The notes beneath the pieces are model-generated. The model saw only the letters and a program-made list of their open reading frames with translations, was not told where the DNA came from and ran no database searches. The position numbers were made by a program, and so were the translations under genes. A stretch of DNA of 64,000 nucleotides from Vulcanimicrobiota bacterium (lineage in GTDB: Bacteria > Vulcanimicrobiota > Vulcanimicrobiia > Vulcanimicrobiales > Vulcanimicrobiaceae): positions 96,001 through 160,000 of the forward strand of contig CAWGBN010000009.1 of the NCBI GenBank assembly GCA_963820825.1. Direction: 5' to 3'. Shown one piece after another: positions 30,244-47,600 of the stretch. Every line of letters starts with the position of its first letter. Positions within the stretch are counted from its first letter, which is position 1.

Positions 30244-31675
30244 ATGCCCCTGCACCGGCGAGTGCTCCCGCGCGACTCCGATATAACCGACGTCTACGCG
30301 ACGCGGGCTATGGACGCGACGATCCCCAAACACCGCGTGCCTGCCGAAGGCTTGCGCCCGGACGTAGCGTTGCAGCTCGTCGTCGACGAGCTGATGCTCG
30401 ACGGTAATGCCCGGCAGAATCTCGCAACGTTCTGCCAGACGTGGTTCGACGACGGAATCCACAAGCTCATGGATCTCAGCCTCGACAAGAACATGATCGA
30501 CAAGGACGAGTATCCGGCAACGGCGGAGATCGAGAGCCGCTGCGTGCACTTGCTGGCGCATCTATGGAATTCGCCGGCAGCCGGAACGACGATCGGATGC
30601 TCGACGACCGGTTCGAGCGAAGCTGCGATGCTCGGCGGGCTCGCCCTCAAGTGGAAGTGGCGCGAACGTCGCGCGAAGGCCGGTAAGCCCAGCGACAAGC
30701 CGAACATCATTACCGGGCCGGTGCAAGTTTGTTGGCACAAGTTCGCACGCTACTTCGACGTCGAGCTTCGGGAGGTTCCACTGGAGCGCGACCGTCTGGT
30801 CATGACGCCGGAGGAAGTCCTCAAGCGCGTCGACGAGAACACGATCGGCGTCGTGCCGACGTTCGGCGTCACGTTCACGTGTCAATACGAGCCGGTCGCG
30901 CAAATCGCCGAAGCGCTCGACACGCTCCAACGCGATACCGGACTCGATATTCCGATCCACGTCGACGGCGCGTCCGGCGCATTCATCGCGCCGTTCGTCG
31001 AGCCCGAGATCCTGTGGGATTTTCGCTTGCCGCGCGTGCGATCGATCAACGCGTCCGGCCATAAATTTGGATTGGCGCCGCTGGGCGTCGGGTGGGTGAT
31101 TTGGCGCGAAGCGAGCGATCTGCCCGAAGGCCTCGATCTTCCACGTCAACTATCTCGGCGGCGACATGCCGACGTTCGCGCTCAACTTCTCTCGGCCCGG
31201 CGGACAGGTCATCTGCCAATACTATCTGATGCTGCGCCTGGGCATGGACGGCTACCGGCGCATCCACCAAGGCTGCTACGACGTCGCGCAACACGTCGCG
31301 CGCCGCATCGCCGCGCTCGGTCCGTTCGAAGTGCTCTTCGACGGCGACAGCCGCAATGGAATTCCGGCGGTATCGTGGACGATGCGCAATCCGGGTGCGG
31401 GATATTCGCTATTCGACCTCTCCGATCGATTGCGCGCGCGCGGCTGGCAGGTCGCCGCGTACACGATGGTCCCGAACATCACCGACATGGCCGTGATGCG
31501 CGTGCTGATCCGACACGGCTTTAGCCTGGATTCTGCCGACGCATTACTCGAAGATCATTCGCCGGTCTTTGGAATACTTCAAGACGCATCCGATTTCTAA
31601 ACCGATGACGGAGCGAGGAGGGCGCCTCGCACGATCACCATGCGCGCCCGCGCGCGGTCGGCGTCAGGCGCGAGA
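30244..31675 (+). CDS. gadB: Glutamate decarboxylase (frameshifts near 31135 and in the C-terminal tail; end approximate)
   Basis: [35 protein letters not shown] lysine in [10 protein letters not shown], then [20 protein letters not shown] and GWQVAAY in a shifted frame. Confidence 0.9.
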
Positions 31676-32776
31676 TCAGTGAGACGCAACGTGCAACTTG
31701 ATCCAGGCGGCCATGTATTCACGGTACCCGGGTAACACTCGCGGCCCGATTTGAATGTCATGATCCGCAGTTTCGAAGATATGAATCGTCACATCGGCGT
31801 TCGAGTTCGCGCGTAACGCTCGTTGAAAGACGGCGATAGATCGCTCAACTGGAACATTCTCGTCGTGCCCACCATAGATCAGAAGCAGCGGCGAGCTGAG
31901 AGATGTGTAGAGTTCGGTCGGCTCCGACCACGTACGCGGATCGCGATAGAACTCATACCTCGAAGGATCGGATCGATCGATCGCTGCGAGGCGGCCGGGA
32001 GGCGGCAGTTGGTTGGAGGCCGGGACGTCGTCGCGAAACTCAACCTTACGGAACTTCTTGAGCAGCCCGTTCGCTACAGCACGCGATACAAGAGCCTGCG
32101 CGCGTTCGTAACCGTGCCCGGTGCGATAATAGAATGCCAACGCATCGTGTAGTTCGATCGCGGCGAGGACTTCTGTGCCGCTCATTCCAACGGCGACAAA
32201 TTGTCCGGCGAGGTAGTAATCGTCGGACTGCGCGGGCGTTACTCCCGCGGGACTCACCAGGATCGTGAACGCCGAAGGGCAGGTCTTAACCGCGCGGGGG
32301 ACGATCCAGCCGGCCTGACTGATGCCGAAATACCCCAAGGTTCTTGCAGCTACGCCCGGCAGGTGAGAGGCGAAAGCGCATGCCGCCGCGACGTCGGCCG
32401 CCTGCACGTCGAAGTTGTCCGTCGCTTTGCCGCCGGAACCGGCAACGCCGCGCTTGTTGAAAGAGAACGACGCGATCCCCGCCTTGGCAAACGTGTGCGC
32501 GATTAGGCGCCAATACACCGACGCGTTGGCGTCATCATAATCGGAGCCTTGAACGAGCAATACCAATGGATAGCTCGTTTCGCCGCGCGGCACGAAGAGG
32601 CGGCCGACCAAGACAACGCTGCCGCTCTTGAACCGGTAATCTTGTGACTCGAACGCAGGCGTAGGCGCGGCAGACGGCGTGGGCGCTGGACTAGCCTGCG
32701 CGCGGGCCGCCGCCGGTGCCGCCGCGGCCCCTACCATCATAAGAAAAGCGCCTAAAATATTGCGAAGACGTAGCAT
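31676..32776 (-). CDS. Secreted alpha/beta hydrolase (S9/acyl-esterase-like)
   Basis: Signal peptide from ATG 32776, GISQAG nucleophile elbow, GGHDENVP, ADH. Confidence 0.85.
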   Translation of the reverse strand: MLRLRNILGAFLMMVGAAAAPAAARAQASPAPTPSAAPTPAFESQDYRFKSGSVVLVGRLFVPRGETSYPLVLLVQGSDYDDANASVYWRLIAHTFAKAGIASFSFNKRGVAGSGGKATDNFDVQAADVAAACAFASHLPGVAARTLGYFGISQAGWIVPRAVKTCPSAFTILVSPAGVTPAQSDDYYLAGQFVAVGMSGTEVLAAIELHDALAFYYRTGHGYERAQALVSRAVANGLLKKFRKVEFRDDVPASNQLPPPGRLAAIDRSDPSRYEFYRDPRTWSEPTELYTSLSSPLLLIYGGHDENVPVERSIAVFQRALRANSNADVTIHIFETADHDIQIGPRVLPGYREYMAAWIKLHVASH

Positions 32777-33001
32777 GGTTGATTCTCCTCGTCTCTTTCC
32801 CGCCTTACGGTATGCATGACCGATTGTTTCGCCCACGGGTCACGGCGAGGGACGCGCGCGATTCAGACATAGTCGTGGCGCCTCTGAGGATCCTCAGCGA
32901 GGAGTGCCCGCAAGGGTCGAGCAAATCGCATAGTTAAGGCAAGTGAAGGGCACCCCGATCGCCTTAAGGCGCACTCGATCACCATACATAAAGGATGGGC
33001 T

Positions 33002-33277
33002 ATGTTCATTTCGGTCATTCATAGGGTCAGCGATCCCGAAGCGTTTCGGACTACTGCGGAAAGCGCCGCGAACGACATCCCCGCCAACCTCAAGCTCCAT
33101 CAAACCGTGACGAGCAACGACCGCTCGACGGCGATCTGCTTATGGGAGGCCGCCTCGATCGAAAGCGTTAGGGACCTTCTCGAGCCGCTCTTGGGGCGGT
33201 TCTCCAAAAACGAATACATTCCGATCGACCCATCAAGGTCAATGGGACTACCGACGACTTCAAACGCGACTGTTTGA
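33002..33277 (+). CDS. Small hypothetical protein (dimeric alpha-beta barrel-like)
   Basis: AAGGA RBS; VIHRVSDPEAF and AICLWEAASIESVR. Confidence 0.72.
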   Translation: MFISVIHRVSDPEAFRTTAESAANDIPANLKLHQTVTSNDRSTAICLWEAASIESVRDLLEPLLGRFSKNEYIPIDPSRSMGLPTTSNATV

Positions 33278-33438
33278 GTCGATCCTACCGTCACGAAGGG
33301 ATCCGGCGTCGAAGCCGGGTCTCTTCAGCTCTTCCAACCTACATATTTTCTCACGAGCGTGCCGGCGCGCTCGACGATGTTGTACGAGGCATTTGCTCGG
33401 GGCGCCCGGACGTTTGCGTCGTCGCCTATAATACACTC

Positions 33439-33476
33439 TTGCCCACAATCGCAAAATAATTTAAGCTTAAATTATT
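33439..33476 (+). promoter_or_regulatory. Sigma70-type promoter TTGCCC-N17-TAAGCT overlapped by a perfect 22-bp palindrome
   Basis: -35 at 33439-44, -10 at 33462-67, palindrome AATAATTTAAGCTTAAATTATT at 33455-76. Confidence 0.7.
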
Positions 33477-33477
33477 G

Positions 33478-34143
33478 ATGAGTGAACTCACGCGGCACGC
33501 TTCCCCTGTGCAAGGCCCGCAAGGCCTCGCGTGGGATGGTGCGACGATGTGGTTGACGAGCGCCGCGAATGGCCGCTTGTATGCGATTGATCCGAAGACG
33601 TGGAGCATCCAACGCGAGTTCGTTCCGCCGTCCGAGTCATTGGGCATCACTTATACCGGTTCGGATTTTCGGCTGATCCTGGCGCCGGCGATCGACGAAA
33701 CGGATCTGGAGCGCGATCACCGCTACGTCTATACATTTTCGCCCGACGCGGGATTTGCGGAGTGTTTCGTATGTCCGAATAACTCCGGATCATTTCTAGC
33801 CTACGCAAACGGCACGCTGTATCTCTCACAAGCCTGGGATAAGAAAATCATCGAACTCGACAAACGCGGCGTCGCGGTACGCGAAGTGCAACTGGAGCGC
33901 CGGCCGGTGGGCATGACGATCGTCGATGGTGCGTTTTGCCTCGTGACCGTCGACGAAGAGTGGGGCGACGGACGCTTCGATCGTCTTGGCATCGACGATG
34001 ACACATCATCGATAAAAGCGCTTCGCTCGCTTCCATTCAAACCGCGCAGCGTTGCATTTGACGGCGAGCACTTCTGGACCGCCGATCGCAACAACCACGC
34101 GATCGTGTCGTTTCCGTTAGTAGACTTCGCGCCGAGGGCGTGA
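33478..34143 (+). CDS. Beta-propeller protein (Vgb/YncE/glutaminyl-cyclase-like repeats)
   Basis: PQGLAWDGATMW, PVGMTIVDG and PRSVAFDGEHFW blade repeats. Confidence 0.75.
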   Translation: MSELTRHASPVQGPQGLAWDGATMWLTSAANGRLYAIDPKTWSIQREFVPPSESLGITYTGSDFRLILAPAIDETDLERDHRYVYTFSPDAGFAECFVCPNNSGSFLAYANGTLYLSQAWDKKIIELDKRGVAVREVQLERRPVGMTIVDGAFCLVTVDEEWGDGRFDRLGIDDDTSSIKALRSLPFKPRSVAFDGEHFWTADRNNHAIVSFPLVDFAPRA

Positions 34144-34244
34144 AAAAAGACGTTAAGGCAAGGCTTCGCTTTCCACTCCCACGATCGGCAATCGGGCAGA
34201 GGGGGCAGAATAGCGCTCGATATCCCCTATCCCAGGCGAACAAA

Positions 34245-34331
34245 GGAGAGGGTGGGATTCGAACCCACGGAGCGCTCATCACGCTCAGCGGTTTTCAAGA
34301 CCGCCGCATTCAACCGCTCTGCCACCTCTCC
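34245..34331 (-). tRNA. tRNA-Ser(UGA)
   Basis: GGAGAGG/CCTCTCC acceptor stem, GCGGT-CTTGAAA-ACCGC anticodon arm, long variable arm, GTGGG-TTCGAAT-CCCAC T arm; no encoded CCA. Confidence 0.95.
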
Positions 34332-34574
34332 GCGACCCACCAAATGCCCTACTTACGGGTACTGCTGGCCGACGACCATGCTCACGGAGCGGCGGTCGCA
34401 CGCCATTTGCCTCACCATTTGCCTACGCGCTTTTAGTCCCTGTAGTTCGCGCCGTCAGATTATTATTAGCCGTATTTTTGACGGCTTAACGGGACGCTGG
34501 TATACGCGTCCCGCATTACCCGCCCTATCCCCGCTTCGAGGCTAAACCTCGCAGCAGCCTCGCAGTTTAGCGCG

Positions 34575-37364
34575 CTATTTCGATTCGTGTCGCTCGAGCG
34601 CGAGTGCTAGCGCACCCTCCGTTGCAAGCGCAGCACCCTCGGCAGTCAGTCGCGCGAGTTCGTCGGGCGCGAGCCCCTCTCGAAGGAGTGCGGTGAGGCG
34701 CTCATACGTCGTTATCTCGGTAAATTCACGCCTGAAGCCGAGTTGCCGGAACGCGGAAGCGGCGTAGCCCTCCAAGATTGAGGCTCGCGCGAGCTCGCCG
34801 CGCAACGCGTAGACCAGGGCGAGGTGCTCCACAACTTGCGCGACCTTCGCATCATCCGGTTCGCGTCTGGCATGCGGTCCTATTACTTCGTAGGCAGCTT
34901 CGATAACGCCAGGAAAATCATCCGCTGCGACGAGATAACCCGCGAGATTAACAAGCGCAGAGCGGACCAGCGCCGTCTCTCGACCCCGCCGAGCTTGAGG
35001 TAGGATTTCGCGGACAAGCGCAATCGCTTGCTCTGTCTGCCCTTTCTCGTGTTCGATCTCAGCAAGGTTCAGAACCGCGACGACTTCGTTGTGCGTATTT
35101 CCGAGCGAGCGGTGACGCTGTCGTAGCTGCTCCCAGATGCGCACGGCCGTATCGGTGTCGCCGTTCGCATCGCACAACTGGGCTTTCGTAAAAAAGAATA
35201 GAAGGCGGAGATACGCGGAGGCGTTCGGGATTGATTCAGCCTCAACAAGCGCTTTTTCAGCATCGCCCCGCGTACCAAAGGCTAAACTGATAAAAGCATA
35301 CTTTTGGAGCGCGTCTGCGAGTGTCGGTCCGTCACCGCTGGCCCGCGCGTATGCAACCGCCCGCGTTGCAAGCTCTAGCGCCCGCTCCGAGCGATTCGCA
35401 TGTGCGAGCATGTCGGCCAGCGGAGTCGAGAGCCGAGCGAGAAGAAGCGATTCACGCGTCGGAAGAGCCGCTATGAACGTCTCATCTCGCGTTATGCCCT
35501 CGTTGCGGAGTCCAAGCGGTTCCCAAGCCATCCCGATTTCTGCAAGAAGCCAGCCGCCTGCGGGGACGTCGGGTTTCGTCAGCGCCCAATCGAGCGCCCC
35601 TCGAACGTTATCCAACTCGGTTGCCAAAGCCTCGTTAAACTCGGTCCTTCGAGCGGTCCGTTCCCATTGAACCCGCAGTTCTGCGAAGCGGACCCGCTGA
35701 TAGTACAGGTGGCGGTCGGCGAGTAGCTCGCGTTCACCCGCGTCCGTGAGTTTCTCCGAAGCGTAAATGCGAGTTGACTCAAGAAACCGATAACGTACCG
35801 AGTCGACTGCTGGTTCGGCAAGAACGAGCGACTTATCAACGAGCGACGAGAGCACGTCGAACACGTCGATTTCATCTAAGCCTTCGCTGCTGCCGACCGC
35901 AACGGCTCCCTCCAGCGTGAATCCGTTTACGAAGGTTCCCAACCGCCGGAACAAGACGCGCTCGCGTTCGTCGAGCAAATCGTGACTCCAATCGATCAGC
36001 GCACGCAGCGTCTGTTGGCGCGGAAGGACGTCGCGACTGCCGCCGGTAAGCACACGGAAACGCTCATCGAGACGTTCCCGGAGTTGGCGCGGGCTGAGAA
36101 TCCTAACACGCGATGCTGCGAGTTCAATCGCAAGCGGGATGCCGTCAAGCCGCCGGCAGATGTCCGCCACGACCGGTGCGTTTTCGTCAACCAACGTAAA
36201 TCGCTTGTCGACGGCCGCTGCACGATCGACGAAAAGTGCGATCGCCGCGGACCGAGTCGCATCCGCTGCCAAAAGATGACCTGCTATATCCTCGGGCGGG
36301 AATTCAAGGGACGGCATGCGGTACGTCTCCTCACCATCAATCCCAAGTCCTTGACGACTCGATGCCAGGACCTTGACATTCGGACAACCATGTAGGATAG
36401 CCGAGATCGCTCGCGAGGCAGGTTCGATCAGATGCTCGCAGTTGTCGAACACGAGCAGCGCACGCTTCCCCTTGAGCGCGCGAACTAGGTTCTCCACCGG
36501 ATCGCCGTCGGGCGCGAGCGTGAGTCCGAGCGCCTGCGCGACGGTAGATGGGACGTAGTCGCCGCTGGCGAGCGGCGCGAGTTCGATCAGCCAGACACCG
36601 TCAGCGGAACCGTCGAGCAAATTCGCCGCGACTTGCAGCGCTGTGCGCGTCTTGCCGACACCTGCCGACCCTACCAGTGTGACGAGTCGATGCTGCTCGA
36701 TGAGTGCCATAATTTCGGCGATCTCCGCGTCGCGCCCAACAAATGACTTCAACTGCAGCGGCAAGTTGTTCGGGAATAGGTCCACCGAACGCAGCGGCGG
36801 GAAGTCTGCCGCGAGATCGGGCGAGACTAACTGGTAGACTTGTTCGGGGCGAGCTAGATCGCGCAGCCGATGTTCACCCAGATCGCGCAAGCTTGCCCGA
36901 GGTGGGAGTGCGCCTTGCACCAGATCGGTCGTGACACCCGACACGAGCACCTGACCGCCATGCCCGATCGTCAGCAGCCGCGCGGTGCGGTTGAGCGCAG
37001 GTCCGAAGTAGTCGCCCTCGCGCTCGTCGGCCGTGCCGGTATGAACGGCCGCACGCACGCGCAATCCATCGATCCCCGAGAAATCCTCTGCATCAAGAGC
37101 GCGGTGCGCGTCGAGTATCGCCACTACGGCGTCTTGCGGGCGCGCGAACGCAGTGCAGAATGCATCGCCGATGGTCTTAAAAACGTAGCCATCGTGCTGG
37201 GCGATCGCCTTTTTCATCAGCGCGTCGTGTCGACGAACGGCGTCTTGCATCGCTTCGCGGTCGCGGTCCCAGCGTTGCGTGCTGCCTTCGATATCGGAAA
37301 ACAGAAACGTGACCGTGCCGGTAGGCCGGGGGGCCCACGGCCCGGATTCCACCTGCGTTGCCAT
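34575..37364 (-). CDS. Class III adenylate cyclase fused to STAND (NB-ARC-like) ATPase and TPR-like region
   Basis: FLFSDIEGST, KTIGDAF, DYFGPALNRTAR; GSAGVGKT, LLVFDNCEH, ICRRLDGIPLAIELAA; start placed at ATG 37364. Confidence 0.92.
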   Translation of the reverse strand: MATQVESGPWAPRPTGTVTFLFSDIEGSTQRWDRDREAMQDAVRRHDALMKKAIAQHDGYVFKTIGDAFCTAFARPQDAVVAILDAHRALDAEDFSGIDGLRVRAAVHTGTADEREGDYFGPALNRTARLLTIGHGGQVLVSGVTTDLVQGALPPRASLRDLGEHRLRDLARPEQVYQLVSPDLAADFPPLRSVDLFPNNLPLQLKSFVGRDAEIAEIMALIEQHRLVTLVGSAGVGKTRTALQVAANLLDGSADGVWLIELAPLASGDYVPSTVAQALGLTLAPDGDPVENLVRALKGKRALLVFDNCEHLIEPASRAISAILHGCPNVKVLASSRQGLGIDGEETYRMPSLEFPPEDIAGHLLAADATRSAAIALFVDRAAAVDKRFTLVDENAPVVADICRRLDGIPLAIELAASRVRILSPRQLRERLDERFRVLTGGSRDVLPRQQTLRALIDWSHDLLDERERVLFRRLGTFVNGFTLEGAVAVGSSEGLDEIDVFDVLSSLVDKSLVLAEPAVDSVRYRFLESTRIYASEKLTDAGERELLADRHLYYQRVRFAELRVQWERTARRTEFNEALATELDNVRGALDWALTKPDVPAGGWLLAEIGMAWEPLGLRNEGITRDETFIAALPTRESLLLARLSTPLADMLAHANRSERALELATRAVAYARASGDGPTLADALQKYAFISLAFGTRGDAEKALVEAESIPNASAYLRLLFFFTKAQLCDANGDTDTAVRIWEQLRQRHRSLGNTHNEVVAVLNLAEIEHEKGQTEQAIALVREILPQARRGRETALVRSALVNLAGYLVAADDFPGVIEAAYEVIGPHARREPDDAKVAQVVEHLALVYALRGELARASILEGYAASAFRQLGFRREFTEITTYERLTALLREGLAPDELARLTAEGAALATEGALALALERHESK

Positions 37365-37878
37365 GGGCCGACGTTTCGTGCTAGGGGTGTTCGCCTCCGC
37401 CGAGCGCCCTTTACACCGGCCGGACGGTTCCAAAACCTTGCTGTTCGCTAAGATGTCGTACCGACGTTCGTCGTGCGCCGTATCCGACCAATCCATCAAG
37501 CCGCGGCAGCTCCCGTTACGGAAGCAATCCATCGTGGAAGCCTCGGCGAGCAGAGTCGGCAACGTAGCAAAATGGGTGGCCCGGAAAGTGAGCACGCTTC
37601 ATCAGATTGTCGAAGTTGGACCCGATAGCGAAGCGAAAGCGTCCCTAACCGAGCCGCCGTTGCGAGACGACAGAGCCCTTGAATAAGACTAGCCCTGGCC
37701 ATGCGGATTTTTTACTCTTAAGCAACATCTGCAGAGTCGTAAGAAGCGTGTGAGAAGGCCGTCCATCTCACTGATTTTCTCACCGATTAGGACACGATAA
37801 GGCTGGATTAGCTCGGATAAGCCTGCTAGTCGTGCTCAAATGGAACTTGCGAAGACTTATTGAGGTTAGCTGTAAGCA

Positions 37879-37917
37879 TTTCAAGACCGCCGCATTCAAC
37901 CGCTCTGCCACCTCTCC
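37879..37917 (-). repeat. tRNA-Ser 5'-half copy 1 (att-like), 39/39 identical
   Basis: tttcaagaccgccgcattcaaccgctctgccacctctcc matches 34293-34331. Confidence 0.95.
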
Positions 37918-37935
37918 ACGTCTCCGCTAGCGCTT

Positions 37936-37941
37936 ATTCTA
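37936..37941 (-). promoter_or_regulatory. -10 element TAGAAT upstream of tRNA-half copy 1
   Basis: attcta on the plus strand, 18 nt upstream of the G1-equivalent base; no clear -35. Confidence 0.5.
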
Positions 37942-37977
37942 TAAGGATTTTGCGCGACAGCGAGCCACCCTTCGGAC

Positions 37978-38175
37978 ATGCCAATCTGCTTGTGGTTGCA
38001 GTGTGATTGCAGTTGGTCGGCGCCACACCTGGCGAACGGGTCATTTCTCAGCAACAGCCCGGGGTGCCTGGGCCCCCCGCAGCGCATCGGTAGCCGCCGC
38101 GACGGCTCTCTCACGACCGCCCTCGACGGCGTGGAGCCCTGCCACGGCAGCCGAGCGCGCACGAAAAACTGCTAG
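37978..38175 (+). CDS. Possible small Cys-rich protein (65 aa)
   Basis: Six Cys and strongly G/C-ending codons; fills an otherwise empty gap; no RBS. Confidence 0.4.
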   Translation: MPICLWLQCDCSWSAPHLANGSFLSNSPGCLGPPQRIGSRRDGSLTTALDGVEPCHGSRARTKNC

Positions 38176-38210
38176 AGCACGCGCTCCGTCGCTTGTAACA
38201 AGCGCGTGCG

Positions 38211-38687
38211 TTACTTCATGTTGTGCGCAAGGTTCGCGCGCAAACTCCCACCGACGCCACCGATGAAGTCGTCGATCAACCAGCCTTGCGCCGTCTTTGT
38301 GACGACCACGGTCACGCGACCGCTCCCCGTCGTTCTCGCGTAGTGGATCGTTACAGGAACCTTCGCGCGGTTGCCGCTGATGCCGGCGGCACCGACGTTC
38401 ACCGACGACGCTGGAATCTGCGCGTCCTCGAACGGCTGGGCGTCGAGCACTTCGGCCTTGTTTTTCTGCTCGAAGGGACCGATCTGGCTCACTAAGCTGT
38501 AGAGCGACGACGTGAGGTACGGCTTCGCCCCGCTGAGATGGTCCAGCCAGCTCTGCGGATACTTTACCGACAAATCCCAGTTGTAGAAGGCGCGAACGAC
38601 CGCTTCAGGAGTGGTCGCCGCGGCCACGGGTGACGCGCAGGGCACGAGAAATGCAAGACCCGCGAGAAGCACAATACGGCGTAGCAT
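38211..38687 (-). CDS. Secreted DUF3828/YbjP-like protein
   Basis: Signal peptide from ATG 38687, TPEAVVRAFY, LDAQPF, GWLIDD. Confidence 0.75.
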   Translation of the reverse strand: MLRRIVLLAGLAFLVPCASPVAAATTPEAVVRAFYNWDLSVKYPQSWLDHLSGAKPYLTSSLYSLVSQIGPFEQKNKAEVLDAQPFEDAQIPASSVNVGAAGISGNRAKVPVTIHYARTTGSGRVTVVVTKTAQGWLIDDFIGGVGGSLRANLAHNMK

Positions 38688-38775
38688 ACGCTGAACGCTT
38701 CGACGCGGGCACTCGCTCGACCCGCGTGCGAATTGCGCCGCATGGAGCGACGCGCCGCGCGTCGTAAAGGCGGCG

Positions 38776-41700
38776 GTGCGCTTTTCGCTCGACATCGCGC
38801 GTGCTTCCTTCGATTCGACGACGTTCTCGCGCGGAATGGACTACGCGCGCAGCGGTCGAGTCGTGCGGCTCGACGTTGCCGCCGGAGACGATTGCATCGC
38901 GGCGTCAGTGCGCGGAACGTCGGCGATTCCCTACGAAGTTGCGATCGATTGGCGCGAGGGCGAGCGCCGACTACGCAGCGTCTGCGATTGCCCCATCGGG
39001 CGCAACTGCAAGCATGGCGCCGCGGCCGCAATCCTCGCCGCCGAAGGCGGCATGCGCGACGCCGCCGACGGGGCCGTCGATAGCTGGCTGCAAGCGATCA
39101 CGACGCGGCGCTTCGAAGGTACCGTGCCGCGTCGCGAGCACGTGCTCTACGTGCTCGACGTTCGCGAATCGTACTACGTTCCACGCGTCGCCGTGACTGC
39201 GCGTATCGTAACGCTGCTAAAACACGGCGAACGCTCGATGGGCCGCGCGATTGATTTATCCAACCTCGCGCAGGGCGCTGGACGTTATGCGACCCCGATC
39301 GATCGCACCATCGGAAGGCTCGCGAGCGTGTGCGTGTCAACCGGCCTCGGCACGCTCAACCCGAAATTGTTTGCGACGCTGCTCGATTTGCTGCTCGCAA
39401 CCGGCCGCGTGCACTGGCACTCGACGAAGCATCCGCCGCTGCGGCGCGCAGACGTGAGCGAAGCTAAGTTCATTTGGCACCTCGATCCGGCCGACGGACG
39501 GCAACGGCCGGGAATCGAAGGCCGCAAGGAGGCGCGCTTGCTGCCGAGCGATCCGCTCTGGTATGCAGATCCGGAGGATAACACCGCCGGAACCATCGAT
39601 CTGGGCATCGCCGGAGAGATGGCGAGCGCGCTCGCGCTCGCACCTTCACTCAACGCAGCGCAAGCGCGGCGCGCGCATACGATGTGGCATCGCATTCCGA
39701 TCGCCCATGGCATTCCGCCGCCCAAGTCGGACACGCGGCTACGCGTCGTCGAACGCGATCCCGTCGTGCGCTTGGTGCTGCGCGGTTTTTCAGCAACTGC
39801 GGAGCTCACGTTCGCGTACGGAGATACGATCGTGTACCCCGACGACGTTACGTTCGAGTTTCAGGAGACGAGCGAACAAGGGGTCGCGATTGCGTGGCCG
39901 CGGCGGTTCGCGTTCGAAGCGGTCGCGAGAGCGACCTTGGCCGAGTACAGTTTGCAACCAGTCGCGTGGCCGCGCGGTCAGTTCTCAGCTACGGAACGAT
40001 CGTGGGTACGATTTCTCGACACCGCCGTTCCTGTTTTGCGCGATCGCGGCTGGCAGATCGAAATCGATTCGACGTTTCCGTACGAAGTCGTGCACATCGA
40101 CGACGCGGCGTGGGACGCGGAGATCGTCGAGAGTGCGAACCGCTGGTTCGAGCTCGACATCGGCATCGATCTCGGCGAGCAGCGCATCTCGCTCTTACCG
40201 GTCGTCGTCGATGCGCTGCAAACGCTCGGCGTGCACTCGGCCGAAGAACTCGCGGCCGAGCTGAGCGGGGAGCGCGCGCGCACGCTCTACGGGCGATTAC
40301 CCAACGGCGCGTTCGCTGCGCTACCACCCGAGCGTATCGAGCGGATCGTTTCGACCTTGGTCGAGCTATTCGACACGCCCTTGACAAAGGAAGGCCGGCT
40401 CGAACTGACGCCGGCGCACGTCGGATCGATCGACGGGCTCGCGGCGGCAGTGCAGCTGCAATGGTCGCCGGCGACGCGACTGTTGCGCGCCGCATTAAAC
40501 GAACTGGTCAGCGCGGAGAACGAGCCGATTGTCCTGCCGAGCACGTTTAAGGGTGAGCTGCGAGCGTATCAAGCTCGCGGCGTGGCGTGGCTGCAACTGC
40601 TGCGGCGCAGCGGCTTCGGCGGCGTGCTCGCCGACGACATGGGTCTCGGCAAAACGGTACAGTTTCTGGCCCATCTGGCGATCGAAAAGGCGCACGGGCG
40701 CTTGTGCGCACCGGTGCTGATCGTCGCGCCGACCAGCGTGCTGCCGAACTGGCGCGCCGAGATCGCGCGTTTTGTGCCGCACTTGCGCGTCGTCTCGCTC
40801 TCCGGGAATGACCGTGCCGAGCGTTTCGACCGCATCGAAGACAACGACGTTGCCTTGACGAGCTATGCGCTGCTCCACCGCGATGCCGATCGGCTGACCG
40901 AGCGTGAGTGGCAGATGGTCGTGCTCGACGAGACGCAGTTCGTGAAGAATCCGCGGTCGAAGGGAGCGCAGGCCGCGGCGCACTTACGCGCGGCTCAACG
41001 CCTCGCGCTCACCGGCACGCCGATCGAGAACCATCTCGACGAGCTGTGGTCGATCTTCTCATTCGCGGTACCCGGTTTGCTGGGCGACCGAACGCAGTTT
41101 GCGCGGCTCTTTCGCACGCCGATCGAAAAACGCGGCGATACGCAGCGCCGCGCGCTCTTGGCGGCGCGACTGCGACCGTTCTTAATGCGGCGCACCAAGG
41201 AAGACGTCGCGCTCGACCTGCCCGAGAAGACCGAAATCGTCACGCGGGTCGAGCTTGACGGGGCGCAGCGCGATCTCTACGAAACGATTCGCCTCGCGAT
41301 GCACGAGCGCGTGCGCGCGGAGATGCAACGCCGTGGCCTGGCACGCAGCCGGATCGTCGTGCTCGACGCACTACTCAAGCTGCGGCAAGTCTGCTGCGAC
41401 CCGCGGCTCGTCAAGCTTCCGGCCGCGCGCAACGTTTTCGACTCGAGCAAGCTCGAGACGCTCCTCGAGATGCTGCCCGAGCTGATCGACGAAGGCCGGC
41501 GCGTGTTGCTGTTCTCGCAGTTCACGTCGATGCTGGATCTGATAAAACCGGAGCTCGCCGCGCGCGCCATCGACTACGTGGAAATTCGCGGCGAAACGAA
41601 GAATCGCGAAACGCCGGTGCGACGCTTTCAAAGCCGCGAGGTGCCGCTCTTCTTGATCAGCCTCAAAGCGGGCGGCACCGGATTGAACCTAACCGCCGCC

Positions 41701-41955
41701 GACACGGTCATCCATTACGATCCGTGGTGGAATCCGGCCGTCGAGCGTCAGGCAACCGATCGCGCCCATCGGATCGGCCAGCAGTGCCCGGTCTTCGTAT
41801 ATAAGCTCATCACCATCGGCACCGTCGAAGAACGAATTCTGGAGTTGCAGCAGCGTAAAGGCGCGCTCGCCGCGGGCATCTTCGACGATGCCGCCGCGAC
41901 TTCGCAGATGTTAGACGAGACGGAGATCGAGCGCCTATTGGCGCCGTCCCTCTAA
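38776..41955 (+). CDS. SWIM zinc-finger SNF2-family helicase/ATPase
   Basis: CDCPIGRNCKH, LADDMGLGKT, LDETQ, LTGTPIEN, LKAGGTGLNL, DPWWNP, QATDRAHRIGQ. Confidence 0.95.
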   Translation: MRFSLDIARASFDSTTFSRGMDYARSGRVVRLDVAAGDDCIAASVRGTSAIPYEVAIDWREGERRLRSVCDCPIGRNCKHGAAAAILAAEGGMRDAADGAVDSWLQAITTRRFEGTVPRREHVLYVLDVRESYYVPRVAVTARIVTLLKHGERSMGRAIDLSNLAQGAGRYATPIDRTIGRLASVCVSTGLGTLNPKLFATLLDLLLATGRVHWHSTKHPPLRRADVSEAKFIWHLDPADGRQRPGIEGRKEARLLPSDPLWYADPEDNTAGTIDLGIAGEMASALALAPSLNAAQARRAHTMWHRIPIAHGIPPPKSDTRLRVVERDPVVRLVLRGFSATAELTFAYGDTIVYPDDVTFEFQETSEQGVAIAWPRRFAFEAVARATLAEYSLQPVAWPRGQFSATERSWVRFLDTAVPVLRDRGWQIEIDSTFPYEVVHIDDAAWDAEIVESANRWFELDIGIDLGEQRISLLPVVVDALQTLGVHSAEELAAELSGERARTLYGRLPNGAFAALPPERIERIVSTLVELFDTPLTKEGRLELTPAHVGSIDGLAAAVQLQWSPATRLLRAALNELVSAENEPIVLPSTFKGELRAYQARGVAWLQLLRRSGFGGVLADDMGLGKTVQFLAHLAIEKAHGRLCAPVLIVAPTSVLPNWRAEIARFVPHLRVVSLSGNDRAERFDRIEDNDVALTSYALLHRDADRLTEREWQMVVLDETQFVKNPRSKGAQAAAHLRAAQRLALTGTPIENHLDELWSIFSFAVPGLLGDRTQFARLFRTPIEKRGDTQRRALLAARLRPFLMRRTKEDVALDLPEKTEIVTRVELDGAQRDLYETIRLAMHERVRAEMQRRGLARSRIVVLDALLKLRQVCCDPRLVKLPAARNVFDSSKLETLLEMLPELIDEGRRVLLFSQFTSMLDLIKPELAARAIDYVEIRGETKNRETPVRRFQSREVPLFLISLKAGGTGLNLTAADTVIHYDPWWNPAVERQATDRAHRIGQQCPVFVYKLITIGTVEERILELQQRKGALAAGIFDDAAATSQMLDETEIERLLAPSL

Positions 41956-42078
41956 TCGTTCGCCGTCAGGCCTTACATACGGACTTCGATTCCCACCTTC
42001 GCAAGGCGACAGGGCGGCGATCCGAGTTTCGTGCGTAAATCGCATTAGCGGAGATGTATCGGTATGGCATTAGTGAAT

Positions 42079-42117
42079 TTTTAAGACCGACGCATTCAAC
42101 CGCTCTGCCACCTCTCC
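42079..42117 (-). repeat. tRNA-Ser 5'-half copy 2 (att-like), 37/39 identical
   Basis: ttttaagaccgacgcattcaaccgctctgccacctctcc; mismatches at 42082 and 42090. Confidence 0.92.
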
Positions 42118-42127
42118 ACGTATTTGG

Positions 42128-42610
42128 TCACGAGCTCCAGGCCGACGCCACGCCCGTGAAGACCCAACTGCTCTGCGTTTTCTCCAGCGTAACCGTCATG
42201 CTACCTTTGTAGGCAACCTTCTTGCCGTTCGGGGCGTCGGTGAACGTGACCGGATAGATTAAATATGCGTAGTTTCCCTGCACTAACGTAAAGAGGGGTC
42301 TCCCGACCGAAAGAGTCCCCAGGGTTGCGTGAATAGCCTCGTTATTCGACTGATACCCTTTCATCCAGTCGGCGCACGTTTGCCACGCATAGGGCGGGAA
42401 ACCATCGACGATGGACGCGCGCGGCGCACACGCAGCAGCAACCGCCTTAAAGTCGCCCTTGTTGATGTCGGTAACCAACTTTTTGACAATGGAAGTCAAG
42501 TCCGACGTCCCAGACGCCAACACAGGGCTGGCCGACAGGATGGCGACTCCACAACTGGCGGCAATAATTAGGTCGCGAATACGTTTTGCTACGCAGTTCA
42601 TGGCTTTCAT
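42128..42610 (-). CDS. Secreted NTF2/SnoaL-like protein
   Basis: GGAG RBS, signal peptide, SIVDGFPPYAW, W..TGVASAW; lower GC. Confidence 0.75.
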   Translation of the reverse strand: MKAMNCVAKRIRDLIIAASCGVAILSASPVLASGTSDLTSIVKKLVTDINKGDFKAVAAACAPRASIVDGFPPYAWQTCADWMKGYQSNNEAIHATLGTLSVGRPLFTLVQGNYAYLIYPVTFTDAPNGKKVAYKGSMTVTLEKTQSSWVFTGVASAWSS

Positions 42611-42662
42611 CTCTCCACACTAGTGCGGTTTTTCGGGCCATAGACCCTTTCGACGACGGCCT

Positions 42663-44633
42663 TCACTGAGCGAGTACGTCGCCAACGGCGCGATAGGCCT
42701 GATCGATTGCTTGGTCAGTGTACGCTGCCGCGGCCGCGTCGGAGTTTGCAATGGCGATGCGGCCAAACCGCCGGCGCGCGGTCTCGCACGGTGTAACCCC
42801 GCCGTTGAAGAACGAGTCGGGGTCCCAGAGCGGATTATATTCGTAGGCGTATCCGTGCGCCCATCGGTTGACCGTTATCGCGGCGATGTCGCGGTCGCTG
42901 CGGAATCCTCCGGCACCGAGTACGCGCTGGAGCTGGTCGCGAATGCTGCGCTCGAACGTTTCGAACGACTCGGTCAGGAGCTCCGCACGACCGGCCCGGT
43001 GCTGATCGCGTTCCGATAGTCCCGGATAGCATGGCGTGCGCTCGAGACGCAGCAGAATCGGTTCGTCGGGCGAGTTGGGCGACCGGTACGATCCGATCTC
43101 TACCGGATTGTCGAGACGGATCGAGTTGTGGAACATCGCGGGCGTTGAAACCGCCGAAACGCCTAGCTCCTTGAAGACGCGCCAGTTGCGAACCGCAACC
43201 ACGGTGTACATCAGCGGAACCTTCGCGCCGTAACGCAGTGCCGTCTTCTGCTCGTCCGGTAGCTCCGGGACGATGTAGGGGATCATCATGTTCCACGACG
43301 CCATTACGACGTGTCTCGAGGTGATCGTATACACCTTACCTGCCCTCGCATACCAGGTCTGCACGCGAGCTGCGGTCTCGAGATCGCCCACATGCCGCAC
43401 GCGCACGACCGTGCTGCTCAGGCGAATGCGCACGACAGATCCTGGATCGTCGAGCCGCCGGTAATCGGCGCGCGCGGTCACGATATCCTGAGGCGTCGAG
43501 CCGGAAAGCACGCCGGGAATCATTCTGCGAACGAGCATCCGCGCGATCGATGCATTGCCGTCGGGAAAGTGAAAGTCGTAGGGCGGCTGATTGGGAATTG
43601 CACTGCCTTTTGCGGTAAAGCCCATGCGCGGATAGGCTCCCGGAGAGAGATGCATTCCCGCAAATCCGGGAAAGCCGAGTCCCCAGCAATCGAGCGCGCT
43701 CACCGCGTCGATGCCGGTTCCGAACAAGCCCCACGTTCGCGTCTTATAAAAAGGAACGAGTTCGGGCGTCACCGCGATGACGTCGCGCAAGAACGTTTCG
43801 TAGCTCATCCGCGACAGCCGATCTTTCTTGGCATCGTCGGTGAGGCCGGGCATGTAGTCAACGGCGGCAGTTTCGACGCGAACGAGATCCTTCTGCGCGG
43901 TCGGCGACAGCGGCGTCCGGACAGCAAAGGTTTCCCAAGACTTGCCGTTGGGCGACTCATCGCCGTAGCGTCCGGGATATCCCGTAACGAGCGCATCGGT
44001 TCCAAACGTTTCCCGATCGAAGAACACCGCCTCGCCCAGTCCCTTATAGTATTGCCACCGGTCGTAGTTTTCGGCGAAAGCCGGCGGATCGATGCCGAGC
44101 TCGTCGAGGAGACCGCGCGCGACCCTGCTGTACGGAAACGGCGATTCGATCGCGTACGTGCCGCCGTTGGCGAGCAACGTGCGACCGTCGACGTGGAACT
44201 CATTGCGTTTTGCGTGTCCGCCGAAGTCGTCGTGGTTGTCGAGAATTAAGATTCGAGCCGACGGCTCGTGCTGCAGGTAGAAGTGCGCCGCTGCAAGACC
44301 GCTCAATCCGGCTCCGACGATCACGAGATCGTACGTTTCGCCGGTCTCGTGCGCCGGCGCCGAATGATTCCAGAAGTCTCCGTCGCGAAGCTCGTGCGCG
44401 GTTGCAAACGATCCCGGATAATCGCCGCGCATTCCGGCCAGCTCGGGCGGATAGTAACCGGGGGCATTCTGTGCCTCGGATGCGGCGGCGCTCGCCGGAC
44501 ATCCAAAGAGGCTTCCCGTAACGACCGCACCGATACCAATGGCGATACCGTCGAGAAAATCCCGCCGCGGTATGTCGGCGAACATGCCGAGTTCGGCGTC
44601 CCGCCGCCGGCCGGCAGGATTTGGATCGGACAT
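42663..44633 (-). CDS. Tat-exported FAD oxidoreductase, spermidine-dehydrogenase-like
   Basis: PRRDFLDG, YYPPELAGMRG, VGAGLSG, DNHDDFGGHAKRNEF, HFPDGNASIAR, NRWAHGYAY. Confidence 0.85.
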   Translation of the reverse strand: MSDPNPAGRRRDAELGMFADIPRRDFLDGIAIGIGAVVTGSLFGCPASAAASEAQNAPGYYPPELAGMRGDYPGSFATAHELRDGDFWNHSAPAHETGETYDLVIVGAGLSGLAAAHFYLQHEPSARILILDNHDDFGGHAKRNEFHVDGRTLLANGGTYAIESPFPYSRVARGLLDELGIDPPAFAENYDRWQYYKGLGEAVFFDRETFGTDALVTGYPGRYGDESPNGKSWETFAVRTPLSPTAQKDLVRVETAAVDYMPGLTDDAKKDRLSRMSYETFLRDVIAVTPELVPFYKTRTWGLFGTGIDAVSALDCWGLGFPGFAGMHLSPGAYPRMGFTAKGSAIPNQPPYDFHFPDGNASIARMLVRRMIPGVLSGSTPQDIVTARADYRRLDDPGSVVRIRLSSTVVRVRHVGDLETAARVQTWYARAGKVYTITSRHVVMASWNMMIPYIVPELPDEQKTALRYGAKVPLMYTVVAVRNWRVFKELGVSAVSTPAMFHNSIRLDNPVEIGSYRSPNSPDEPILLRLERTPCYPGLSERDQHRAGRAELLTESFETFERSIRDQLQRVLGAGGFRSDRDIAAITVNRWAHGYAYEYNPLWDPDSFFNGGVTPCETARRRFGRIAIANSDAAAAAYTDQAIDQAYRAVGDVLAQ

Positions 44634-47600
44634 CAGATTTTGAACTGGGCGGTAACGAAGACGTTCGTCGGTACTTTCGTCCCGGTAAAACCGTTGACCA
44701 ACGGATTGTACTGATAGTTATACGGATAGCGGAGTTGCACCGGTGCCGACACTAGCGCAGCGAAGTTCCCGACCGGCGCGATCGAATAGGCGAGCGTATC
44801 GAAGATGCACACATTCGAATCGTCCCACGGGTAGCCGTGCTGGAAGCACCGATCGACCAATCCCGTCGCAGTAACGGAGACCGTTACCGCCGGCGAAATG
44901 TCGTAGCCGGCCGAAAGATTGACGGTCAGGCGCCCCGGCTCTCTGAAACTCGTGACCGAATCGAAGGCGCCGGTGTACAGGTCGGGGGTGAACAGATAGG
45001 CGACGGTGTTCGGCGGCGGCGTACAGGCCTGCGGATTGACCGGGCCGCGGGTCCCGCTCCCGTGAACCGGCAGGCAGTCTTGCGGAACGTATCCGGGCCA
45101 GCTCAGTGGCGACCCGTACGTCTTCCCGTAGCCGTACGCGACCGTCGGCGTAACGTGAAGTCTGTCGTGTTTGTAGCCAAGGACCAGATTGAACACATTC
45201 GGGGTCACCTGACCGGTCGCGCCGGTAAATGGGGCGGCGAGCTCCGCGTACGTCGGATACCACGCATTCGCGTCGAGCAGGGGCTGCGCGCTCGCCGAAT
45301 AGTACGGATTGAGGACCCTCGTCTTTGGCGCCTCATTGCTGGGAAGCGTGGGATGCGCATTGGCCGATCCGTACGCGCCGCAAAGCGCACGATTTCCCGC
45401 AATGCAGCTGTGTGTATACGAGTTATACTGCTGGATGAAGGAGTTGAGCGTGTCGATAAAGTTGACGCCGGGCGTGATGTCGTCGTACCGGCTCCGGCTG
45501 TTCGTGTAGGTGTACGAAAGTTCGAACGAGAGGCCGTTGTTGGAGAAATCTCCTTTGCTAAGCGCGAGTTCGACACCGTACGCCTTGATCAATCCTCCGT
45601 TGACGCCGGTCGTGTCGCCGTTGTAGCCGATCGGTACGAACTCGATCTCGTCGAAATCTTCCCGATAGAAGGGCGTGATACGGAACGCAACGTCGGTGCC
45701 GTGTACGTGCTTCTCCAACGACAGGTCGTAGCTGTTCGCGACTTGGGGACTTACCGCGTGGTACGGTGTATTGAAACCGAAGGGCAAGAACTGCGAGAGA
45801 AAGTCGGGGAGATCTTCCTGTCGCGCGTAGACCTCCAAGTTGGTCCCGGGACTGCTGGCGTATCGGCCGTAGGAGAGTCGCATCACCGTGTCCGGATTGA
45901 ACGTGTACGTCAGCCCGAGGCGCGGTTCGAGTTCGCTGTAGCTGACGTATCCGGGCACGACGTTCTGCAGGTTCGGCGACGAAAACCCGGTCGGGCAGGC
46001 CGGCCAGGCTCCCGTCACCGGGTTTATCTGCGAAGGGTTCTTGTATGTGAAGGCGCCTCCGGGAGCCGTGCAATACTCGCGGTTAAATGCCGCAAACCAG
46101 AAGTTGCGCGCCGCCGTCGTCGTCGTCGAGGGCAGTGAAAAGTCGAACTGGTCCAAGCGCAGTCCGATATTTGCGACCAAACGATCGTTGGGGCGATATT
46201 GATCGGCGATCGAGTAGCCGTAGTCCGTTTCGGTGACGTTGTTGGTGTTGCCGGTGAGTCCGGTCTCGGTCATCGCCCAGTGCGCGCCGTGGAGGGCCGC
46301 AGGGCTCCTCGGCGGCAACGGCACGTTCGAGCACCGACCCGAAGCGTTGAGCGTACAGCCCGCAGGCCCCAGCTGCGGCCTGCTGCCGAATTGCGTCACG
46401 ACGTTGTACGAGCATCCAAGGTTGCTGGAGAAAGCGGAGCCGTAGTAACCAGAGTTGCACGGGGAGCCGGAATCGTAGCAGCTATCGTATGCGCCCGTAA
46501 CGTAATTATAGCAGTTCCCTCTCGCGTCGATAAAATTGTCGGAGATGAAGCCCGCCATGGCCTCGTTGTCGAGCAAGCTATTCTCCGTGCGCGACACGCT
46601 CGCCGTCGCCGTCACCAGATGTTGGGACGAGAGCTGATCCTCGTAGCGTCCGGTAAGGCCGTACGTGTGCGTGAAGGTGATGTACTCGGCGGGAGTCGGC
46701 CCGTACGGGAGATTTCCGCTATCGGCGCCGGTGTAACCGAGATACGAGTAGTTGGCATATCCGTAGATCCGAACGAACGACCGGTCGTCGATGGTGTGCT
46801 GATACTGCACCTTGTCGAGTGATACTTCGTTGTCGCTATTGTCGCGATAGGCTGGTGGCAGCGGTGCTTGCCAGGCGCGATTGGTCGGCGTATTGGGCAT
46901 GAAGTACTTCGAGAGGAGGGTGGACGGCGTGGCCGGCGCCATCAACGGCTGGTTATAGACGTAATCGTCGGGAAAGACCGGATAGTAGCCGAGCTCTTTC
47001 GTCAAGAGCGCCGCGCCCCCAAGATCGTTGACCGAAGTCGGATTGTATGCCGGCAGATACCCCGACATCGCGAGTAACTGGACGTCGTCTCGATACGGGC
47101 CGTTGCGGTGTGGAATTGCAAAGTGAAGATTCACGATGCCTTCGCGATCGAAGACCGTCACTTGCTGGGGCGTGATACCGCTGGTGAAATATGCCTTTCC
47201 GCTCCCGTCGAAGACCGTTTCGTTGTTTCCGGTGGGCAGTACGATCGGCGTCCAGAAACGCGCGACATCCGAAGCGCCGTCGTATTGATCGACGAAGCGG
47301 TTGTCTTGGCCGAAGCCCATGACGCCCAGGTAATAGGAGAAGGTTCGATCGGGCGTCGCGCCGCCCGCTTCGAACGCAGCCTTGTGATAAAACGCCGGTG
47401 CGCCCACGCTGAACTCAGCCGTCGCGTACCCCGGAATCGTTCCGGTCTTGATCACTTGATTGATGTATCCCGACGTGCCGGCTGCGTCGGCCGAGGCCGG
47501 CGACCCGCCGGCATAGAGTTGTAATTGCCGTTGACCCAGCACCGAGAAGAACGACCCGGTGATCGGGACACCATCCATCTCTTCGGAAACGTCGCCGGAG

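Follow-up and report, generated by a model that had tools for sequence, protein, structure and literature searches.

The tRNA-Ser(UGA) locus and its 5' half copies

The window examined here is a 64,000-nucleotide stretch of a Vulcanimicrobiota genome (assembly GCA_963820825.1, contig CAWGBN010000009.1, positions 96,001 to 160,000), and its subject is a tRNA-Ser(UGA) gene preceded by partial copies of itself. A sequence-only reading of this DNA had reported two direct repeats of the tRNA 5' half upstream of the gene, and both were confirmed, with 39/39 and 37/39 identities. Both halves are upstream of the gene, share its strand and bound two units, spanning 34332-37878 (unit 1) and 37918-42077 (unit 2). 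The features of the locus were as follows.

34244-34331, minus strand: intact tRNA-Ser(UGA) gene (ARAGORN; anticodon TGA, G1 at 34331), the sole tRNA gene in the window
34332-34464, minus strand: near (tRNA-proximal) attachment (att) arm of unit 1, GTGAGCAAA family
34575-37595, minus strand: unit 1 cargo, a 1006-aa open reading frame (ORF) for an adenylate/guanylate cyclase-STAND AAA-TPR protein
37747-37878, minus strand: far (P'-type) att arm of unit 1, GTGAGAAA family
37879-37917, minus strand: 5' half copy 1, tRNA positions 1-39, 39/39, diverging at position 40
37918-38012, minus strand: tRNA-facing arm of unit 2, its final 27 bp common to the arm before the tRNA gene of G027
38211-38795, minus strand: unit 2 cargo, a 194-aa ORF with a 74% homologue beside the SNF2 gene in G004
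38776-41955, plus strand: unit 2 cargo, SNF2-family helicase of 1059 aa
42019-42077, minus strand: truncated far arm of unit 2, of which the first 58 bp remain and the arm-type sites are lost
42078-42117, minus strand: 5' half copy 2, 37/39 over 42079-42117 and 38/40 with position 40
42122-42131, minus strand: arm-type motif GTGACCAAAT, 14 bp before the far half

The tRNA gene, which is the target site and the single Ser(UGA) gene in the assembly, has no encoded CCA; the base behind its acceptor stem differs between relatives (T, C or G). Half copy 1 ran, as previously described, from G1 to the final base of the anticodon loop (CTTGAAA), with positions 1-39 identical to the gene and the break at position 40. 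Half copy 2 differed at positions 28 and 36, and the second of these changes, within the loop, falls in the presumed 7-bp overlap. These were the only Ser(UGA) halves detected by BLAST in the 2.98-Mb assembly (E values of 1e-13 and 2e-11). Each repeat was the core of a longer attachment site, with an arm of ~130 bp after it and one of up to ~90-130 bp before it. Half copy 1 is the core of a chimeric internal att site, and positions 1-39 of the intact gene would derive from the last incoming element.

The near arm of unit 1 was 80% identical over 133 bp to the arm behind an intact integrase in the relative G002, a match that takes in the last integrase codons, and all three of its arm-type sites were mutated (34418-34426, 34406-34415 and 34377-34385). 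The far arm of unit 1 contained two direct sites (37775-37783 and 37763-37771) and one inverted site (37750-37757); being of the GTGAGAAA family as opposed to the GTGAGCAAA family of the near arm, it made the two ends of this unit non-cognate. In the tRNA-facing arm of unit 2, TAGAAT was located 24 bp before the half and two TGCAAC-like repeats were found at 37991-38012. The GTGACCAAAT motif ahead of half copy 2 probably represents the right end, now collapsed, of an older third element. With a motif in this position, the far copy is unlikely to represent the original chromosomal end.

The window had been said to lack an intact integrase, and neither an integrase nor a remnant of one was found in it. 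Five PF00589 genes were present in the assembly, none of them near this locus. No cognate integrase was detected in the assembly, which is 85% complete (best match, 36% identity), and no relaxase match was obtained in it; a search of this genome (G000) for the serine recombinase family PF07508 was also negative.

Arrays in the genus Candidatus Cybelea

When the 39-mer was searched with three mismatches or fewer, matches were obtained in 83 of the 91 genomes of the genus (Candidatus Cybelea, Vulcanimicrobiota). At least two matches were counted from the table in 48/91, a few of which may owe their matches to other Ser genes or to a second strain. A reversed control pattern gave 0 matches across the 91 genomes. 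Forty-two regions from 36 genomes were then surveyed; they were picked mostly for several matches, and kin among them are not independent. Of 120 tRNA matches, 119 were co-oriented (29 full genes and 90 halves), the halves lay upstream of the gene, and nearly all of them ended at position 39 or 40. The longest arrays comprised nine halves (G002:C4), seven halves plus the gene (G015:C1) and five plus the gene (G094, counted by joining across contig ends with circularity assumed). The same layout was observed on Mb-sized contigs and in independent metagenome contigs, and gene content varied at the half boundaries among relatives, which is the kind of variation for which a synteny comparison had been suggested.

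Outside these genomes, the junction motif was found at 21 metagenome loci, some of them duplicates, with no unit common to different organisms, and 0 times in viral contigs. In phage records, integrases were at most 33% identical among the best 15 matches listed. The 39-mer was present in 20 of 32 genomes of another family of the class, with two copies in one; this tally used a pattern biased to the genus Candidatus Cybelea and includes the unpublished G048, G059 and G124. At 20 Ser(UGA) loci of two other families, no integrase was detected within the stretches fetched.

An empty tRNA-Ser(UGA) site was not found among the genomes examined. Three single-copy genomes (G022, G018 and G085) had element-type or element-like DNA upstream of the tRNA, and no arm motif was seen in two others (G087 and G063). 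Twenty-four DNA sequencing runs were listed as matching (shares of 0.07-0.10), none of them of the same strain, and no RNA run was listed. Contigs of four runs covering 32500-43500, which came from relatives, contained no joint linking two halves among the best 15 of 29. A search of literature mostly outside subscription journals returned nothing on such arrays in Vulcanimicrobiota.

An integrase-bearing element in relatives

A tyrosine recombinase beside the same 5' half, which had been suggested as a test, was found in relatives. The integrase ended 95-140 bp before G1 on the same strand and adjoined the Ser(UGA) gene upstream in all five genomes checked. It carried domains PF00589 and PF14659, and the catalytic R-K-H-R-H-Y residues were kept in 8/8; named records with the same integrase are labelled Candidatus Cybelea or Vulcanimicrobiota. 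Preceding it were genes for an 810-aa MOBP relaxase and an HTH_17 excisionase, in that order. The relaxase (PF03432, with NF041893 near the cut-off) was matched in 14 of 16 units with a full integrase. No type IV secretion component was detected in the proteins scanned, which were the family representatives, part of the singletons and part of the 65-85 kb units. With integrase, excisionase and relaxase, the autonomous units have the gene set of an integrative mobilizable element (IME; PMC5704250, PMC7563491), for which excision, and transfer with a helper element, would be predicted.

The distribution of integrases depended on position. A full integrase was detected in 16 of 29 tRNA-adjacent units compared with 3 of 90 internal units, where the remaining ends showed no integrase trace (n = 73), a remnant (n = 10) or a broken gene (n = 4). 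By rank from the tRNA, full integrases numbered 16/29, 2/26 and 0/23. The halves themselves followed the predicted trend of greater decay farther out, with 0.31 mismatches at rank 1 and ~2.2 at higher ranks (rho = 0.39, n = 49); these values include kin, which are not independent. Decay of the half was not correlated with decay of the arm sites in 26 units. The integrase remnants point to decay of self-integrating elements. Units in these arrays had a median size of 4.4 kb; one locus (L069, G035:C13) contained a group II intron reverse transcriptase and an IS110 sequence in the unit upstream of the integrase.

Attachment arms and integrase phylogeny

Around each half, the arms were conserved over ~130 bp behind it and 85-120 bp ahead of it. 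Repeats of 8-9 bp were present in both arms, two direct and one inverted in the far arm and three direct in the near arm, and their sequence differed by family (GTGAGCAAA, GTTAGCAAA, GTGAGAAA, GTTACCAA, GTGACCAA or TGCAAC-like). By analogy with lambda-type integrases, these are putative arm-type integrase sites. Of 51 units typed at both ends, 35 had the same motif at each (shuffled mean of 13.2, with 0/5000 shuffles as high), whereas ends facing each other across a junction agreed in 11 of 44; for the other 26 of 77 units a type was missing for at least one end, and the motifs were derived from the same data. The inverted repeat flanking each half behaved similarly, agreeing within the unit in 27/77 and across the junction in 12/75, compared with 16% for random pairs; it gave only a half match to the IHF consensus. 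As ends match within units and not at junctions, the stretch between halves is the moving unit and the junctions are chimeric.

In a tree of 40 integrases, the 22 Ser-targeting 5' enzymes formed one branch (100/100), whose subclades, one group of which targets Ser(GCU), track the arm motifs. The G000 integrase at tRNA-Arg(CCU) grouped with another Ser(UGA) lineage outside this branch (97/95). The row L092 P1 represents the other integrase of that locus, and the P1 lineage is not in the tree. Mapping of the 5' or 3' label onto this tree required at least two changes.

A variant D-arm provided a further marker. Carried by one element family, it was seen in three intact tRNA genes (G077, G103 and G035) and in another three copies. 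Its association with a single family shows that the half is part of the element upstream of it. Furthermore, one unit was common to two G015 contigs at 98.3% identity, and these contigs diverged at tRNA position 39. The adjacent integrases and the D-arm variant accord with the earlier proposal that successive integrations in the anticodon loop each brought a new 5' half.

Model of array formation

We consider that the locus is a tandem accretion array of IMEs and of derivatives resembling cis-mobilizable elements (CIMEs), built in the 5'-replacing orientation, and give this explanation a probability of about 0.72. In the autonomous element, the far arm is followed by cargo, by genes for the MOBP relaxase, the excisionase and the tyrosine integrase, and then by the near arm and tRNA positions 1-39. 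The anatomy in relatives, where the integrase ends 95-140 bp before G1, shows that attP contains the tRNA 5' half. To judge from the break at position 39/40 and from lambda-type chemistry, strand exchange would take place in the anticodon loop and would rebuild the tRNA with the 5' half and upstream DNA of the element. Each insertion would shift the earlier half and element outward, consistent with the pattern in which the newest position keeps an intact integrase and older ones have a broken gene, a remnant or none. Deletions would strip integrase, excisionase and relaxase genes, and some may cross a junction and leave cargo between the arms of two different elements.

The window units look decayed, since their arms are truncated or do not match and the assembly contains no cognate integrase, and are probably the worn-down remains of at least three, and probably four, insertions. 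Unit 1 is most simply explained by a deletion that spanned a junction, now lost, and took the mobility genes of the newer element with it. As in CIMEs, both units were without integrase matches (in the window) and relaxase matches (in the assembly), and derivation by deletion from an IME or an integrative and conjugative element was indicated for unit 1 by the 80% identity over 133 bp to an IME end. The att cores were present, but the arms of unit 1 were non-cognate and mutated, and unit 2 had a truncated far arm and a loop mutation. These units would be stranded unless a new IME arrived and excised the composite by cis-mobilization. Excision, transfer and promoter supply are likewise steps predicted by the accretion model from sequence.

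The geometry would require the near arm to supply a promoter for the tRNA, unless transcription reads through. A promoter consensus scan of 33900-42700 detected 0 sites. The best -10-like hexamer was located 23-25 bp before G1 in 18 of 29 tRNA-adjacent arms, the window arm having none. With an Escherichia coli matrix, the mean score was only slightly higher than for shuffled sequences (5.2 compared with 4.4), and regions upstream of native tRNA genes scored no better than shuffles.

Several observations weigh against simple accretion and decay. No integrase trace was present at 73 of 90 internal ends. In 13 of 20 near arms of the GTGAGAAA type without integrase (seven genomes, scored by eye), similarity to the IME started at one arm site, 86 bp before G1, and the DNA past this site was unrelated. 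Random deletion would be expected to leave a less clean picture. Arm sites differed at 2% of positions and the spacer at 26% in 24 of the 26 GTGAGAAA-type far arms from integrase-less units; selection on these sites may date from the autonomous stage. An inverted far-arm family, that is, a diverged (~71-76%) and inverted far arm, formed the end of 14/49 integrase-less units as against 0/28 integrase-bearing units. In addition, one G035 copy of the element with the variant D-arm has the common allele. The sampling also counts here, since regions were picked for having more than one match, related genomes are not independent samples, and motif definition and testing used the same data.

Alternative explanations

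The strongest competitor invokes the same integrases and only partial decay: many integrase-less units would be non-autonomous cassettes that are moved in trans, keep minimal att arms under selection, gain new cargo, and are excised and integrated by the integrase of a visiting IME. We regard this as unlikely. It would account for the arm-site conservation, for the inverted-arm families without an autonomous member and for the abrupt ends of similarity, which stops at the arm sites (~130 bp for far arms and 85-120 bp for near arms); 19 of 33 ends with a match stopped -18 to +13 bp from the outermost site, and 46 of 89 ends had no match. The two ends were cognate in 17 of 29 integrase-less units (shuffled mean of 13.1, p = 0.044), but this is weakly above chance, and the other 12, like window unit 1, were non-cognate. 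Two further cases speak for it. One G015 contig had six integrase-less units behind the unit common to both contigs (98.3%), and a remnant unit was present at 84% identity in G019, adjoining the tRNA, and in G094, farthest out, with different neighbours. However, blocks of units could arrive jointly, and no whole unit recurred elsewhere among the 77 complete units and others. Cargo also moves without arms, as SNF2 homology in 11 genomes ended at the gene edges. Nor did any integrase-less unit match the conserved stretch before the relaxase, so that cell-to-cell transfer of these units would need cis-mobilization.

The idea of a cassette-like array loaded in trans had been raised by the sequence-only reading; it was not supported for the window, where the arms are non-cognate or truncated and the best integrase match is 36%, and remnants in relatives suggest decay. 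A bolder version, which we entertain only as a minority possibility, is that the array is a gene collector before an essential tRNA, filled with integrase-less cassettes moved in trans by several competing IME integrases. The same doubtful claim holds that some cassettes are quasi-symmetric, with inverted-arm ends, and that the IMEs differ in arm specificity. If it were true, each arrival would rewrite the D-arm and upstream control region of the tRNA, and an integron-like collector based on double-stranded lambda-type sites would have been overlooked by island catalogues that require an integrase.

A true integron-like platform, with a fixed integrase beside the tRNA, promoterless cassettes, folded single-stranded sites and expression from one end, is very improbable. 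An intact integrase, where present, almost always occupies one end of the array, and the inverted repeat flanking each half allows junctions to be drawn as hairpins, but the integrase rides in a bounded unit with a relaxase and an excisionase and differs between genomes. It scored 43 bits against the integron integrase model TIGR02249, for which the cut-off is 265. Junction folding was unexceptional (z of -1.3 in the window; mean z over 87 junctions of -0.7 as RNA and -0.06 as DNA), and Rfam gave no match at junctions. Cargo genes were not co-oriented (103 sense and 85 antisense), and only 14/49 units had a single gene. An attC-like or RNA hairpin at the junction was considered and rejected, being not over background; the excess of G-T over A-C (51:19) also occurred in random pairings.

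An assembly artefact, or tRNA duplication and decay without mobile elements, is highly improbable: the genome is a nine-contig bin, strains are mixed in some relatives (two Ser(UGA) arrays occur in G015) and none of the runs was of the same strain, but the flanks differ among the three copies and in each case match arm families of other genomes, and the layout recurs in 48/91 genomes, on Mb-sized and independent metagenome contigs, with one break point and adjacent integrases.

Comparison with known systems

In streptococci, IMEs and CIMEs of 1.2-13 kb accrete in tandem with chimeric internal att sites, the most decayed element lying farthest from the target, and the tRNA targets listed are 3' ends (PMC5704250, PMC7563491). 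Composites in Streptococcus salivarius contain two elements (33 cases) or three (4 cases) in the order CIME-IME-target (PMC7563491). The arrays described here resemble these in the combination of a tyrosine integrase and a relaxase, with no secretion component among the proteins scanned, in decayed elements that keep their att sites and in element size. They are unlike them in that the 5' half is replaced, arrays reach seven halves plus the gene (G015) or nine halves (G002), and a single target is used by six or more types of arm site. The array thus works like IME/CIME accretion and differs in orientation, length and number of competing arm types.

The rarity of 5' duplication claimed earlier was borne out by Islander, in which 159 of 3919 islands have a 5' tDNA fragment and four tandems of at least three are recorded, with an integrase in each member (PMC4383910); such islands are also described as known and rare in PMC6563490. 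As in that class, the window halves are 5' fragments lying upstream, co-oriented and anticodon-centred, and the arrays involve a tyrosine integrase. The integrase inside the island that Islander also expects is absent from both window units and present in the autonomous relatives. Islander and TIGER demand an integrase and a length of at least 2 kb (PMC12424338), so most units here would escape these catalogues.

The tycheposons of Prochlorococcus also show tRNA-proximal newcomers displacing older elements outward, with partial tRNAs and scattered integrase fragments, and their targets include Ser(TGA) (bioRxiv 10.1101/2020.12.28.424599). Their hallmark is replication genes (primase and helicase) with the integrase, whereas the core here is relaxase-excisionase-integrase with a MOBP relaxase; an NrS-1-type polymerase domain was seen solely in the separate G071 lineage. 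In SXT/R391 elements at prfC, the 5' end of the target is replaced and supply of a promoter has been proposed. The same replacement and proposal are reported for dusA-associated integrase islands (PMC4482086). Unlike the arrays, both of these systems hit protein-coding targets and use other integrase families.

Overall, the builder of 5'-side tRNA arrays was identified in an uncultured soil genus. The general mechanism is already known, which limits the surprise, and the array is a mirror-image and unusually long form of a known mode of accretion. Several integrase subclades, each with its own arm motif and with one tRNA half as target, form a test set, to which sister integrases at Ser(GCU), Arg(CCU), Thr, Lys and Sec genes can be added. 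The questions opened are whether the CIME-like units are fossils or trans-mobile and how integrases change from the 3' to the 5' orientation or back, a switch that the tree requires at least twice. Mobile elements here swap the D-arm of a single-copy tRNA, and the variable region, with its cargo of repeat-rich secreted proteins, signalling, metabolism and defence, would largely be overlooked by integrase-dependent finders.

Cargo and related systems

The SNF2 helicase of unit 2 had 89-93% identical copies, with different flanks, in 11 other genomes of the genus, and 6 of these 11 homologues were no more than 8 kb away from a half or full gene of Ser(UGA). One marker protein was only 79-83% identical in four relatives, two of them among the 11. 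This high identity, together with homology that ended at the gene edges, indicated that cargo is exchanged between species without fixed ends. The 194-aa ORF of unit 2 matched no Pfam family and gave a weak NCBIfam lipoprotein match far under the cut-off. Homologues of the cyclase-STAND-TPR ORF of unit 1, which belongs to a large paralogous family, aligned just to ~37405, and the true start of this gene is therefore probably later than the ORF start. The commonest cargo family in the arrays (63 proteins) includes GloVer-repeat (TIGR03803) proteins of 300-460 aa (L052, L047, L077, L078 and others).

The variable region around the tRNA extends from ~27.6 kb to 51 kb of the window. Outside the units, it includes a pyridoxal decarboxylase gene (30244-31524) and genes for a FAD oxidoreductase and a TonB receptor (42663-48175), which were 88-95% identical in other species near the same tRNA at different positions.

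A second 5'-type system was observed at G000:C5:230474-231785 (L032), where an integrase ends ~170 bp before tRNA-Arg(CCU) and the arm repeats are TGCAAC; a 5' half of this tRNA (1-40) was present on another contig (C2:349872-349911). The TGCAAC-like repeats at 37991-38012 make unit 2 a weak candidate for action in trans by the Arg(CCU) integrase. G000 also had 3'-fragment arrays at tRNA-Asn(GUU) (C2:329578-340432, four fragments), Ala(CGC) (C6:691205-697816, two fragments), Val(GAC) (C5:169238) and Sec (C6:480480).

Sister integrases with 53-59% identity were found upstream of tRNA-Ser(GCU) with 5' halves (L163, L164, L165/L166, L167 and L168). At L164, an extended -10-like box lay ahead of the displaced half, possibly a stranded host promoter. 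In another family of the class, tRNA genes for Sec, Lys(CUU) and Thr also had related integrases upstream (L131, L132, L133, L135, L143, L146 and L147), indicating that the 5' geometry is common in the lineage. Far arms were also detected behind partial halves that began at positions 6-17 (L058/L057, L075, L251, L252, L261 and L264), which are possibly secondary sites or deletions. At L237 (G030), a 3' fragment (36-87) was located 1.2 kb downstream of tRNA-Ser(UGA), so that both sides of this gene have been used.

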